Sequence record: OR770614.1
Source of the DNA: Staphylococcus phage vB_StaM_PB50
Reading direction: 5' to 3' (one strand)
Length of the DNA stretch: 64,000 bases
Shown: piece after piece, positions 45,679 to 51,982 of the stretch
Position numbering within the stretch: the first letter of the stretch is position 1
Layout of the letters: every line of letters starts with the position of its first letter
The notes under the pieces: generated by a model
Told to the model about the DNA's origin: nothing
Database searches by the model: none
The model's input: the letters and a program-made list of their open reading frames with translations, nothing else
Made by a program: the position numbers and the translations under genes

Positions 45679-46074
45679 TTAATAAATATAATCTTCGATA
45701 TCAATTTCATTTTGTTTAATTGTCATATCATGGAAAGACTTCATGGAGCTTGTTACAATTGCTTGAGCTACCTGATTGACTAATAAACCAATATTTTCAA
45801 TACCTAATTTGTAAGGTAATTCTCCTGCACATTTACTACAAATATCTTCACTCGCACAATACATAGGACTTCTGAAGTTCAATACTTTCTCAATATACTC
45901 ATCTACATTTTCAGGAGTTAATAATATTAATTGACCTTTTCTTCCTGAAGTATTTTCAAAATATCTATAAAGTAAAAGACTTGCATTATCTTTAGTTAAA
46001 GTTAATTTTAATGTATGTTTTGTTCTACAATCAGAACCTTGTTTATCTAATACAGTTGTTTGGAAAGCGGACAT
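45679..46074 (-). CDS. RNA polymerase beta-prime fragment (trigger-loop/region G segment). Downstream piece of a split or interrupted beta-prime C-terminal gene.
   Basis: RSPMYCASEDICSKCAGELPYKLGIENIGLLVNQVAQAIVTSSMKSFHD aligns with E. coli beta-prime [54 protein letters not shown]. SDCRT aligns with DCGT. There is no SD before its ATG. Confidence 0.7.
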   Translation of the reverse strand: MSAFQTTVLDKQGSDCRTKHTLKLTLTKDNASLLLYRYFENTSGRKGQLILLTPENVDEYIEKVLNFRSPMYCASEDICSKCAGELPYKLGIENIGLLVNQVAQAIVTSSMKSFHDMTIKQNEIDIEDYIY

Positions 46075-46115
46075 AAGTTTTTTAGCTTGATCATTTTATT
46101 ATCTATATTTTACTA

Positions 46116-46215
46116 TAGATTAGACTATATCTTATGAATTTAATCATTTCTATATTTAGTCGTTGGACAACTTTATTAAGTTGATGCTAGTTAGTTTTAA
46201 CATTCTAGCAATTAA
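46116..46215 (-). other. Conserved structured intervening element, copy 3 (IVS3), between the two beta-prime ORF fragments. Intron-like or recoding element.
   Basis: The minus strand reads TTAATTGCTAG..CTAGCATC, the hairpin CAACTTaataAAGTTG, TCCAACGACTAAATA, a hairpin, then GATATAGTCTAATCTA. It shares blocks with the two copies in the beta gene, with compensatory stem changes. Confidence 0.6.
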
Positions 46216-46239
46216 TAGAATTTATTGTGAGCATCTAAT

Positions 46240-47055
46240 TTACCCACCTTCTTGAGTACCTAAAGCACGTCCAGCTGAACCAGCTGTCATAATATCACCA
46301 AACATATATAATTCTTCTGGATCAATTCCATCAGCTAAAGAACTCTTAGCAATACGTATTTTACTAGGATCAGCAAAATTTTTATTTGCTCCACGAATAA
46401 GAGCTGTTAATTTAAAGTTATTTTCAAAACTACCTCTTGATTTACTATCATAAATATCAAGATCTGCTAAACCTTCTAATTCTTCCTTACTTAACTTAAT
46501 TAATTCTTCTTCAATAGCACTAATAGCATTCAATTCTTCACCAGGAGTATTTAATGCTTTACCGTATTTCTCTAGTAATTCTTCTTTCTTTTGTTTAACT
46601 TTATCTGGAGCAACCATCATTGTAGTTGTTAAGCTAGAATTAATAAATCCTGCTATAGAGAAACCAAGCCATTGAAGTTTATCAATATACATATTCATAT
46701 CTTTAGTTGTAATAACGTCATTAAGTAATAAACTAGATAGTTCAGATTGTAGATTTCCTACACCTGATCCTCCCATATCTTTATTCATATATCCTATAAT
46801 AGGTCCTATTTTATTGTCTAATATAAATTTATTAAATATATATCTTCCAACTGTTGTTCTTTCATCTTTACTATTATAAACTAAATCTTTTTTAAGTTTA
46901 AATCTATCGCTAGGGTTAAACATTGGTTGTGTATTTTGTCTAAATGCAAATAATTCTTTAAGTTTATCAAGAGTAATATCTTCTTTTTTTATACTTAATA
47001 AAGTTGATATTTCTTTCTCAGATAAATCTTTTTTATCATAAGTCATATTAACCAA
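46240..47055 (-). CDS. RNA polymerase beta-prime C-terminal-half fragment (bridge-helix region).
   Basis: RGANKNFADPSKIRIAKSSLADGI...DIMTAGSAGRALGTQEGG aligns with the beta-prime bridge helix [26 protein letters not shown]. TTG start after SD GAAAGAAGTGA. An AACA-N6-TAT motif at 47088-47100 (minus) lies upstream. Confidence 0.65.
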   Translation of the reverse strand: MVNMTYDKKDLSEKEISTLLSIKKEDITLDKLKELFAFRQNTQPMFNPSDRFKLKKDLVYNSKDERTTVGRYIFNKFILDNKIGPIIGYMNKDMGGSGVGNLQSELSSLLLNDVITTKDMNMYIDKLQWLGFSIAGFINSSLTTTMMVAPDKVKQKKEELLEKYGKALNTPGEELNAISAIEEELIKLSKEELEGLADLDIYDSKSRGSFENNFKLTALIRGANKNFADPSKIRIAKSSLADGIDPEELYMFGDIMTAGSAGRALGTQEGG

Positions 47056-47371
47056 TTTAATTTCACTTCTTTCATATATTATTTGTAATATTTGAATGTT
47101 ATCATCAATTTTATATTTTTGTAATTTATAAAATTATCTCATAAAAAATTTGAAAACCTCCGGAATATTATATTTATATAATAATATAATTATTATAATA
47201 TATTAAAATATAAAATATTTTAATATATAAAAAATATAATATTAGAGGGGGTATATTTAGATTTTGATATAATCAAAATCTAATAAATTATTTCTCCTTA
47301 AATTACATAAAAAAGATAAAGAAAACAAGTACATATATAAAATTTATTAAATGAAAGGAATTGAATAATAA
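47056..47371. promoter_or_regulatory. Divergent control region between the beta-prime (minus) and beta (plus) genes.
   Basis: Contains a roughly 75-nt pure A/T tract (47180-47250), a perfect palindrome AGATTTTGATataaTCAAAATCT (47259-47281), and AACA-N6-TAT motifs facing each gene (47088-47100 on minus, 47324-47336 on plus). Confidence 0.5.
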
Positions 47372-50488: not shown

Positions 50489-50582
50489 TTGCTGAAATTA
50501 CTTTAAAGTTAATCAGCATCAATCAAATTGTTCAACGACTAAATAATAGTTACTAATTATATAATTAGTAATGATATAGTCT
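50485..50582 (+). other. Conserved structured intervening element, copy 1 (IVS1).
   Basis: TTAATTGCTGA..TCAGCATC stem, hairpin CAATcaaATTG, TTCAACGACTAAATA, hairpin TTACTAATTatatAATTAGTAA, then GATATAGTCT. It starts exactly at the stop codon (ATT TAA TTG CTG A). Confidence 0.6.
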
Positions 50583-50587
50583 CAACT

Positions 50588-51091
50588 ATGTATAAAGTAT
50601 ATAGAAATAAGATAATGTCTCCACGTATTGGAATGACTGGTACTCAAGCCAAGCACGTAATTCCAACAAAAACTAATAGTAAACCATTAGTTGGATCTGG
50701 TGTTGATAAATCTTTAGCTTATCAATTATCAGATACATTTGCTTTTAAAGCTAAGCAAGATGGTAAAGTATTAAAAATTAATGAGAAAACTGGTTTAATG
50801 ACAGTGGAATATATCAATGGTGAAAAAGATATTGTTGATATATCTGAAAAATTAGCCAAAAACTCTAACTCAGGTTTTTATCAATCTAATAAACTTGATC
50901 CACAATTTAACGTAGACGACACTTTTAATAAAGGTCAAATACTTGCTAAAAATAATAATTTCTTTGCTGGATCTGGTAAAAATAATGATATTCAATTCAC
51001 TTCAGGTAAATTATCTAAAGTATCTGTAGCTAGCTCATATGGTATTATAAATGCCTTTCATTATAGTAATGTAATGTCAAAAAATTATTAA
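50588..51091 (+). CDS. RNA polymerase beta fragment 2 (167 aa).
   Basis: RIGMTGTQAKHVIPTKTNSKPLVGSGVDKSLA...AFKAKQDGKVLKIN aligns with E. coli beta [30 protein letters not shown]...AVAKRGGVVQYVD. There is no SD before the ATG. The first 10 codons probably belong to the intervening element. Confidence 0.65.
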   Translation: MYKVYRNKIMSPRIGMTGTQAKHVIPTKTNSKPLVGSGVDKSLAYQLSDTFAFKAKQDGKVLKINEKTGLMTVEYINGEKDIVDISEKLAKNSNSGFYQSNKLDPQFNVDDTFNKGQILAKNNNFFAGSGKNNDIQFTSGKLSKVSVASSYGIINAFHYSNVMSKNY

Positions 51092-51194
51092 TTGCTGAGA
51101 AATATTAAATTAATCAGCATCTCTATATTTATAGAGTTCAACGACTAAATATAATTATTCATTAATGCTAATGAATTTGATATAGTCTAATCTA
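51088..51194 (+). other. Conserved structured intervening element, copy 2 (IVS2).
   Basis: TTAATTGCTGAG..TCAGCATC, hairpin CTCTATAtttaTAGAG, TTCAACGACTAAATA, hairpin TTCATTAatgcTAATGAA, then GATATAGTCTAATCTA. It again begins at the stop codon (TAT TAA TTG CTG A). Confidence 0.6.
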
Positions 51195-51220
51195 TTATAA
51201 AAATATAATAGCTAATATAA

Positions 51221-51982
51221 ATGACTTATGAAGATAGTTCTATTATTTCTAGTAGTATGTCTGAAGCAATGTCTACTAAAGTTACTATGAAGAAAACAGT
51301 AAATATTCCATCAAACACAAATATTCAATATATAGTTAAAGAAGGTCAGAAAGTACGTACAGGAGATCCTTTAATGATATTTGAAACTTCATTCGATGAA
51401 GAAGGTATTGGTTCTTTATTAGATAAAATTGGTAGTGAATTTGAACAAGATATTCAAGATATAGCTAACCGAGCTGTTAGAAGTAAATATACAGGTAATA
51501 TTAAAAAGATTAATATTTATTATAATGATGATATTGAAAATATGACTGATAGTTTAGCTAAATTAGTTAATAATTACATTAAAAAATCAAATGATAAATA
51601 TAAAGAATATAAATCTGGAATTAAAAATAATAAAGAAACTTTACCTGGTATTGATGTAGATATCGCTGCAGTTGATAAAATTAATACAGAGAAAATTAAA
51701 GGGGAAAAAGTTGACGGAGTTCTTATTGAAATCTTCACTGAGTATGAAGATGATATGAGTGTTGGAGATAAAATTAGTTTCTATGGAGCTTGTAAAACTG
51801 TAGTTGCTGATGTAACTCCTCCAAATGAATCTCCTTATGCAGAATATAGACCTGATGAGGAAATCGAAGCTGTATTCTCTCCATTAAGTATTGTCTCTCG
51901 TATGACAGTTGATATTTACATGATGCTATTTACAAATAAAGCTTTAATAGAATTAAAACGTAAAGTAAAAGATATGATTTAA
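51221..51982 (+). CDS. RNA polymerase beta fragment 3 (253 aa).
   Basis: N-terminal YEDSSIISS aligns with the beta motif FEDSILVSE. GDKISFYGACKTVVADVTPPNESPYAEYRPDEEIEAVFSPLSIVSRMT aligns with [46 protein letters not shown]. There is no SD before the ATG. Confidence 0.7.
   Translation: MTYEDSSIISSSMSEAMSTKVTMKKTVNIPSNTNIQYIVKEGQKVRTGDPLMIFETSFDEEGIGSLLDKIGSEFEQDIQDIANRAVRSKYTGNIKKINIYYNDDIENMTDSLAKLVNNYIKKSNDKYKEYKSGIKNNKETLPGIDVDIAAVDKINTEKIKGEKVDGVLIEIFTEYEDDMSVGDKISFYGACKTVVADVTPPNESPYAEYRPDEEIEAVFSPLSIVSRMTVDIYMMLFTNKALIELKRKVKDMI

Follow-up and report, generated by a model that had tools for sequence, protein, structure and literature searches.

The virion RNA polymerase (RNAP) genes of Staphylococcus phage vB_StaM_PB50 raise a simple question: are the beta and beta-prime subunits encoded by several separate genes, or are their pieces joined before a protein is made? 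We analysed 64,000 nt of this genome (record OR770614.1; hereafter the window), in which the two genes form a divergently transcribed pair. Beta is read as three plus-strand open reading frames (ORFs; 47372-50488, 50588-51091 and 51221-51982) and beta-prime as two minus-strand ORFs (46240-47055 and 45679-46074), of 1038, 167, 253, 271 and 131 aa, respectively. An earlier sequence-only reading had described this layout, which matches the ORF list. It had taken the minus-strand gene for the C-terminal part of beta-prime; the bridge-helix motif present in it instead identifies the 'mid' part. Our analysis indicates that the elements in the three gaps between the pieces are most probably compact group I introns, a reading to which we assign a probability of about 0.9.

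One structured element is inserted three times in two RNAP genes

Across the RNAP region the window shares 95-97% DNA identity with the Staphylococcus jumbo phages AH12 and Machias, and about 82% with Madawaska, MarsHill, PALS_2, S6, DC4 and LY01. The beta gene is uninterrupted in S6, DC4 and SA1, and the beta-prime gene in these three as well as in Madawaska, MarsHill and PALS_2. DNA alignment to intron-less alleles (S6, DC4, SA1 and Madawaska) revealed insertions of 165 nt (beta intron 1), 180 nt (beta intron 2) and 150 nt (beta-prime intron), whose coordinates are given in Table 1. When the three segments were removed in silico, single ORFs of 1421 aa (beta) and 408 aa (beta-prime) resulted, with the protein junctions ..RHAD-SPRIGMTG.., ..SSYG-TYEDS.. 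and ..QEGG-YQAKK... The spliced proteins aligned end to end with those of S6 at 80% and 84.5% identity, respectively; the beta-prime alignment was gap-free, and neither protein's alignment broke at a junction. A PDB sequence search showed that homology to bacterial RpoB is continuous across the junction of beta exons 1 and 2, and a single alignment to bacterial beta-prime (RpoC), with the bridge-helix motif ..SGYLTRRL.., crosses the beta-prime junction. PHROG RNAP profiles matched the spliced proteins in one stretch, and a Pfam search of these proteins gave no match. The five ORFs are really two genes.

The sequence-only reading had held that the same structured element sits in every gap. This was borne out: the 64 kb hold three exact occurrences of the 13-mer CAACGACTAAATA, one in each gap, and a covariance model of the family gave 104.3-104.4 bits for beta intron 1, 100.8 bits for beta intron 2 and 104.3 bits for the beta-prime intron. 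No further copies were found in the window, either with that model run with its filters off (next best place 21.9 bits, E 0.1) or in loose-pattern scans. The window contains exactly three elements, far beyond chance.

The boundaries had to be redrawn. The elements had been put at about 100 nt, with 100-190 nt between junctions, and the two beta copies had been thought to begin at the stop codon. The alignment yields the larger sizes given above and starts the introns 36 nt (beta intron 1) and 48 nt (beta intron 2) further upstream. The in-frame TAA of both beta introns is the conserved UAA of J3/4 (UUAAUUGC), and the beta-prime stop codon consists of the last exon U and the first two A's of the intron. 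What had looked like partial duplication of flanking residues is intron sequence translated by the upstream ORF or from an intronic ATG. The upstream ORFs read through to ..DQTWIVGLKTI (beta intron 1) and ..IINAFHYSNVMSKNY (beta intron 2), each followed by a stop. The downstream ATG lies inside P9 in beta intron 1. In beta intron 2 it spans the 3' splice site, its G being the terminal omegaG, and the ORF begins one codon early; in beta-prime it lies at 46074, 17 nt into exon 2, which starts at 46091. None of the three downstream ORFs has a Shine-Dalgarno sequence, as had been reported; on reading the sequence we found no purine-rich stretch upstream of their ATGs.

The insertions carry group I splice sites and a group I core

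We surveyed the splice sites of 19 family members from the window, Machias, Madawaska, AH12 and LY01. The last exon base was a U opposite an intron G at the base of P1 in 19 of 19, and the terminal intron base was a G in the same 19 of 19 (omegaG at 50617, 51223 and 46092 in the window). The P1 pairings are GCCGAU/GUCGGC in beta intron 1, GGU-AUU/AAUGCC in beta intron 2 (the hyphen marks the splice site, here and below) and GUGGGU/GCUCAC in the beta-prime intron, and the introns begin with GAUCA, AUUAU and AAAUU. A longer P1 for beta intron 2 (UGGU-AUUAUA with UGUAAU.GUCA) scores well, but the pairing GGU-AUU/AAUGCC together with P2 was preferred, because all P2-bearing relatives share the layout ..AUGCC(C)-UUU-P2.

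The conserved blocks recognized by the sequence-only reading proved to be the classical group I elements P, Q, R and S. Block UUAAUUGCUGA corresponds to J3/4-P4, UCAGCAUC to P4', GUUCAACGACUAAAU to J6/7-P7-J7/3 and GAUAUAGUCU to J8/7-P7'. The segments AAUUGCUGA, AAUCAGCAUC, GUUCAACGACUAAAU and GAUAUAGUCU line up with the corresponding consensus positions of the Rfam group I intron family (RF00028, Intron_gpI) and show no variation among 18 sequences; blocks R and S agree with the group I consensus almost letter for letter. P7 has a G-C pair after a bulged C. P3 is formed by the 6-7 bases before UAAUUGC and the bases after ACUAAAU, and P3 and P7 together make the group I pseudoknot.

The architecture is compact. 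Beta intron 2 comprises P1, a P2 hairpin and P3-P9, and the other two introns are without P2. The GUAA loop of P2 is kept in every P2-bearing relative, on a stem that covaries. P5 is 2-3 bp in the three window copies and 3-5 bp family-wide, and the other hairpins are short (P6 4-6 bp, P8 4-8 bp, P9 6-8 bp). The spacer between P7 and P3' is only AAU in all three copies, so that P7.1/P7.2, the mark of subgroup IA2, are absent. P5abc and long P9 extensions are absent too, and G+C content is 18-21%.

Table 1. Exons, introns and predicted intron helices of the beta and beta-prime genes (window coordinates; IGS, internal guide sequence).
Feature	Position	Strand	Details
Beta exon 1	47372..50452	+	ends ..CAT GCC GAT (..R H A D), last base T; from DNA alignment to uninterrupted S6, DC4 and SA1 genes and in-silico splicing
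Beta intron 1	50453..50617	+	site 'c'; P2 absent
Beta intron 1, P1		+	exon GCCGAU 50447-50452 with IGS GUCGGC 50468-50473
Beta intron 1, P3-P6		+	P3 50479-50485/50545-50551; P4 50490-50495/50513-50518; P5 50500-50509; P6 50520-50530
Beta intron 1, P7-P9		+	P7 50535-50541/50577-50582; P8 50552-50569; P9 50586-50604
Beta exon 2	50618..51043	+	TCT CCA CGT (S P R I G M T G..) to ..TAT GGT (..S S Y G)
Beta intron 2	51044..51223	+	site 'f'
Beta intron 2, P1 and P2		+	P1 51041-51055; P2 hairpin, GUAA loop, 51059-51076
Beta intron 2, P3-P6		+	P3 51083-51088/51151-51156; P4 51093-51098/51114-51119; P5 51101-51111; P6 51121-51136
Beta intron 2, P7-P9		+	P7 51141-51147/51183-51188; P8 51157-51176; P9 51192-51211
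Beta exon 3	51224..51982	+	starts ACT TAT GAA GAT (T Y E D S S..)
Beta-prime (mid part) exon 1	46242..47055	-	ends ..GGT GGG T; from alignment to uninterrupted Madawaska gene
Beta-prime intron	46241..46092	-	P2 absent
Beta-prime intron, P1		-	exon GUGGGU 46247-46242 with IGS GCUCAC 46232-46227
Beta-prime intron, P3-P6		-	P3 46220-46215/46153-46148; P4 46210-46205/46190-46185; P5 46201-46194; P6 46183-46168
Beta-prime intron, P7-P9		-	P7 46163-46157/46127-46122; P8 46147-46134; P9 46119-46102
Beta-prime exon 2	45679..46091	-	starts AT CAA GCT, completing Y Q A K K L M S..; ATG at 46074 internal

Covariation and Rfam comparison support the fold

The sequence-only reading had proposed a covariance-model search and a comparison with Rfam, and both were carried out. 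A covariance model, R1, was built from 18 sequences with a hand-specified structure, and 23 matches were re-aligned to it, giving 22 distinct sequences for the covariation counts (20 full-length matches plus 3 partial matches to endonuclease-bearing relatives). Standard pairs were formed in 98.0% of cells, compared with 23.9-46.8% when partners were slid by 1-3 columns. Compensatory changes on both sides were seen in 18 of the 33 pairs, and the covariation score was 0.447 versus 0.035-0.065 in the slid controls; 0 of 500 shuffles matched the observed paired percentage or covariation score. By helix, compensating pairs numbered 5 of 6 in P3, 3 of 4 in P6, 4 of 4 in P8 and 4 of 7 in P9, and P7 was invariant. 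P3 alone occurs in eight compensating versions (for example AACUAUU/AAUAGUU, AAUUAU/AUAAUU, UUCUAU/AUAGAA and AAUCUU/AAGAUU). The P4 covariation first noticed by eye, GA..UC in both beta copies against AG..CU in beta-prime, was correct and extends to P3, P6, P8 and P9.

In searches with segments of about 200 nt, RF00028 was the best family by E-value for all three copies. Aligned over model positions 1-253 in each case, it scored 42.5 bits for beta intron 1 (E 5.3e-10), 26.7 bits for the beta-prime intron (E 2.7e-05) and 15.4 bits for beta intron 2 (E 0.076). Even in the alignment of this last, lowest-scoring copy, P1, P2, P3, P4, P5, P6, P8 and P9 appear in canonical order.

Proposed splicing and points that weigh against it

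These features suggest how the genes would be expressed. The transcribed intron would fold into a group I core in which P1 pairs the last 3-6 exon bases with the internal guide sequence, the two core domains are built from P3-P8 and P4-P6, and the P3 and P7 pseudoknot provides the guanosine pocket. Free guanosine would attack just 3' of the U.G-paired exon U in P1. The last G of the intron would then enter the pocket and the 5' exon would attack after it, ligating the exons. The predicted spliced junctions are CATGCCGAT joined to TCTCCACGT, TCATATGGT to ACTTATGAA and GAAGGTGGGT to ATCAAGCT, and the spliced mRNAs would yield one beta polypeptide of 1421 aa and one beta-prime (mid) polypeptide of 408 aa. 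Splicing itself, and its autocatalytic nature, are what we infer from these sequences. The earlier suggestion that the pieces are joined at the RNA level by introns like those of the Bacillus jumbo phage AR9, and are not translated separately, is supported by the boundaries, the reading frames, the splice-site hallmarks and the homology.

Several observations weigh against this reading. The alignment behind the covariation counts was fitted to the model structure and is biased towards it. Covariation in P3, P4 and P8 was already visible in a plain MAFFT alignment, from which RNAalifold recovered only P4, P7 and P8, because hairpins of unequal length were misaligned. P10 is partial: five of six pairs can form in two copies, and it is not evident in beta intron 2, including by manual reading. 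All three copies fall below the RF00028 gathering threshold of 50 bits, and no Rfam intron match appeared when the whole window was searched at the gathering threshold or when 6.5 kb were searched at E<=10. We attribute the shortfall to deleted peripheral helices and A+T bias (34 bits for beta intron 2) rather than to a missing core element. The default settings flagged nothing because the scores are sub-threshold and because speed filters drop the copies in larger searches. Finally, we know of no group I intron as small as 150-180 nt that has been shown to self-splice, and catalytic competence without helpers is uncertain for that reason.

Alternative explanations

This last point leads to the alternative that survives best, itself a variant of the group I reading: the introns derive from group I and are spliced, but have lost autocatalysis and rely on a protein of the phage or its host. 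Such a helper, be it an RNA chaperone, a tRNA-synthetase-like cofactor or a maturase-like homing endonuclease, could stand in for the peripheral stabilising domains that have been lost. The introns may depend on a protein chaperone or cofactor in vivo, since P5abc, P7.1/7.2 and P9 extensions (and P2 in two copies) are gone, P5 is reduced to 2-3 bp and G+C content is only 18-21%. Larger, endonuclease-encoding relatives also occupy neighbouring sites in sister phages. Against this, all core elements are intact and invariant, including the G-binding P7 and the A-rich J4/5 and J8/7; the conserved GUAA loop on a covarying P2 stem suggests RNA-RNA tertiary contacts, and no candidate cofactor was identified in this analysis. 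Loss of autocatalysis is possible, though we consider it the less probable case.

Jumbo-phage RNAP genes are naturally divided into several genes, and an ATG-started ORF follows each element in the window. The genes might accordingly be genuinely split, with the elements serving as intercistronic structured RNAs for processing or regulation and five polypeptides assembling into the enzyme. We consider this very improbable. No ribosome-binding site precedes the downstream ATGs, of which two are wholly or mostly intronic and the third lies within the true exon; the breaks bisect invariant catalytic motifs in proteins that are uninterrupted in close relatives, and the elements bear every group I splice-site feature.

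The sequence-only reading had also raised an undescribed mini-intron or ribozyme class. On that view the elements would be small ribozymes, unrelated to group I, that cleave or splice themselves; it fares slightly worse still. The small size and the lack of an Rfam match at the gathering threshold speak for it, and the remark that the elements fall short of the usual group I size was itself sound. The core is nevertheless canonical group I, with the U.G pair in P1, the terminal G, RF00028 as best family aligning end to end with helices in canonical order, and R and S blocks near letter-for-letter consensus; full-size relatives with homing endonuclease genes have the same core. Group II introns were rejected, there being no Rfam group II match at any threshold, 5' ends that are not GUGYG and a length of 150-180 nt that is too short. 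We give almost no credence to a programmed translational bypass like that of T4 gene 60, which the sequence-only reading had also entertained with take-off at ATT or TAT and landing at a matching codon: a stop codon does follow the proposed take-off codons and matching codons lie downstream, but comparison with the intron-less alleles sets the junctions before the take-off codons, by 36 and 48 nt, a hop would leave 11-15 intron-encoded residues inside invariant RpoB motifs, the beta-prime copy has no codon pair because its stop arises at the splice site itself, and what is conserved is the core of a group I intron rather than a take-off hairpin.

The intron family in related phages

Introns at these RNAP sites are already known in close relatives. 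The GenBank record of Machias (MW349128) already connects these exons, joining beta-prime from 2 pieces and beta from 4, 'based on alignment to' AR9 proteins, and introns are likewise annotated in MarsHill (MW248466) and Madawaska (MW349129); in AH12 and LY01 they are present and unannotated. The accessible text of Korn et al. (bioRxiv 10.1101/2020.12.14.422802) describes RNAP subunit genes disrupted by introns, with an exon number that varies between phages and exon boundaries predicted by protein alignment only, and cites Lavysh et al. In that portion of the paper we found no description of the intron class, RNA structure, exact splice sites or small size. The three elements of the window are thus new members of a known group, group I introns in jumbo-phage RNAP genes; what is unusual is their minimal size and the proliferation of the family.

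Comparison of individual sites revealed both conservation and turnover. Machias and AH12 carry, at the site of beta intron 2, an intron 98.3% identical to it, the beta-prime intron is near-identical in Machias, AH12 and LY01, and beta intron 1 is also found in AH12. In the window, beta is interrupted at sites 'c' and 'f' and beta-prime by the second of its introns; two more are found in AH12, and Machias has three others and is without 'c' (beta intron 1). The window is without the intron at the GMTG-TQAK site and the first of the twin beta-prime introns, both of which are present in Machias, AH12 and LY01, and without the endonuclease-bearing intron of Machias.

The twin beta-prime introns in Machias, AH12 and LY01, of 177 nt and 150-154 nt, surround a 16-nt micro-exon, ACTCAAGAAGGTGGGT (minus strand; L001:993-1335, L003:2313-2656 and L008:848-1194, respectively). 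The second twin of LY01 has almost no P8, and the window carries only the second of the pair.

Two introns of Machias, at beta site 'e' (L001:6956-7167, plus strand) and beta-prime site 1 (L001:1159-1335, minus strand), share a near-identical 41-nt P1-P2 module, with one mismatch beyond it at position 42. Both sit at the 10-nt target GGT-ACTCAAG, and their P3, P6 and P8 differ. The shared module suggests ectopic transposition or module exchange, and is compatible with reverse splicing directed by the guide sequence or with a relaxed endonuclease.

Full-size relatives that share the P4, R and S blocks and carry an ORF occur at about S6 gene nt 2916 in Machias, 3086 in MarsHill and PALS_2, and 1581 in LY01; the annotation as endonuclease is explicit for Machias. 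Those of Machias, MarsHill and PALS_2 have a long P5 extension. Where P7.1/7.2 would lie, the endonuclease-bearing relatives in MarsHill and PALS_2 carry about 75 extra nt, which makes the mini-introns look like reduced derivatives of ordinary phage group I introns. We infer that the family is mobile, or recently was, since presence differs among genomes 95-97% identical and neighbouring larger relatives carry homing endonuclease genes.

The family is abundant in these genomes and extends beyond Staphylococcus phages. With one 180-nt intron as query, blastn matched 32 places in Machias, 28 in AH12 and 31 in LY01, and 11-12 in MarsHill and Madawaska. When IMG/VR was scanned for the R...S core, at least 120 stretches came back, and the R1 model was then applied to 80 of these loci. 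It gave 154 matches, nearly all full-length and most of 120-165 nt, mainly on contigs of 200-400 kb and often in tandem arrays about 215-230 nt apart. Compact cores of this kind are common in uncultivated jumbo-phage contigs. In one array (L073:1249-4204) eight matches lie within 3 kb, some spaced by only about 215-230 nt, so that the exons between them would be a few dozen nt long. Tandem arrays also occur in L060, L048, L057 and L026, all five contigs being of 218-378 kb, and some matches lie on contigs of giant-virus metagenome-assembled genomes.

A bolder view is that the elements, two of which are made up of P1 and P3-P9 only, are the smallest natural self-splicing group I ribozymes, proliferating without endonucleases and spreading by guide-directed reverse splicing rather than homing. 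Their family, with about 30 matches per genome in this clade, would include the twin introns of relatives and the tandem arrays of uncultivated contigs. The near-identical 5' modules at GGU-ACUCAAG in beta and beta-prime of relatives support such spread, which might use the orphan retron-like reverse transcriptase that these phages encode according to the accessible text of Korn et al. We consider the proposal as a whole a long shot.

Gene callers and Rfam at its default threshold miss these introns, and RNAP subunits are mis-split in databases, in this clade and in many metagenomic jumbo phages. If autocatalytic, introns of 150-165 nt that have to be removed efficiently from essential genes would define the minimal RNA for a working group I ribozyme and would be convenient minimal scaffolds, for example in circular-RNA engineering. 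As presence differs at 95-97% identity and the same family occupies two genes, these phages offer a tractable system for the movement of ORF-less group I introns.

Other features of the region

The divergent beta-prime and beta genes are separated by 316 nt of extremely A+T-rich sequence (47056-47371), whose minus strand has two or more copies of TATATTAT, given in the accessible text of Korn et al. as the predicted early promoter consensus of these phages and AR9.

Downstream of beta-prime, the minus-strand positions 45027-45129 hold a 103-nt tRNA gene (Rfam tRNA 52.5 bits; not called by ARAGORN) with normal acceptor, D and T arms and the anticodon stem UACGG/CUGUA. The 38 nt between the halves of that stem comprise a 7-nt loop, AUUUUAU (anticodon possibly UUU), and an insertion of about 31 nt. 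This insertion could form a hairpin of its own, is far below the length of a group I intron and occupies the position that tRNA introns have in archaea and eukaryotes. A normal tRNA-Asn(GUU) is found at 45137-45208. A further tRNA-like gene at 45561-45632 (minus strand; Rfam 45.8 bits) has a shortened anticodon loop and is reported by ARAGORN as 'tRNA-???' with anticodon 'tt'. In Machias both tRNA-Asn genes of the region, including the counterpart of 45561-45632, are annotated as pseudogenes.

Comparison with known systems

The bypass of T4 gene 60 resembles the present case in having a coding gap after a stop codon. The gaps here, at 150-180 nt, are three times as long as that of gene 60, and they differ in having junctions away from the take-off and landing codons and a sequence that is a ribozyme core, so that they are not members of the bypass class.

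Also comparable are the small bacterial tRNA group I introns of subgroup IC3, such as those of Azoarcus tRNA-Ile (about 205 nt) and Anabaena tRNA-Leu (about 249 nt). Among well-studied group I introns that self-splice, the former is, to our knowledge, the smallest; a search of the literature for a stated minimum size found none. The window introns share with IC3 a minimal P1-P9 without P5abc, the lack of an ORF and, in P2-bearing members, a GNRA-type L2 loop (GUAA), which IC3 introns use for tertiary docking. They differ in lying in protein-coding genes at about 20% G+C, whereas IC3 introns lie in tRNA anticodon loops, are G+C-rich and have another P7 and J8/7. They are also 25-55 nt shorter than the Azoarcus intron, and two of the three are without P2.

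The phage introns of subgroup IA2, found in T4 td, nrdB and nrdD, have P7.1/P7.2 between P7 and P3', where the window introns have only AAU. The two groups are alike in placing several introns in one essential phage gene at highly conserved codons, in having early in-frame intron stops and in the coexistence of endonuclease-bearing and ORF-less forms. Landthaler and Shub reportedly described three introns in orf142 of Staphylococcus phage Twort in 1999.

A further parallel is provided by phage AR9, whose homologous virion RNAP beta gene (L130:291-6909) is joined from 6 pieces. A 2016 abstract by Lavysh and colleagues is said to call the RNAP introns of AR9 and PBS1 self-splicing. The ORF-less introns of the AR9 gene measure about 300-390 nt as derived from its sequence, about twice the window introns, and one further intron carries an HNH/AP2 endonuclease gene. 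R1 matched all five AR9 beta-gene introns, one at 59.9 bits across an internal insertion of about 100 nt and the others at 20-28 bits. The AR9 introns occupy different positions from those of the window, and their core is related.

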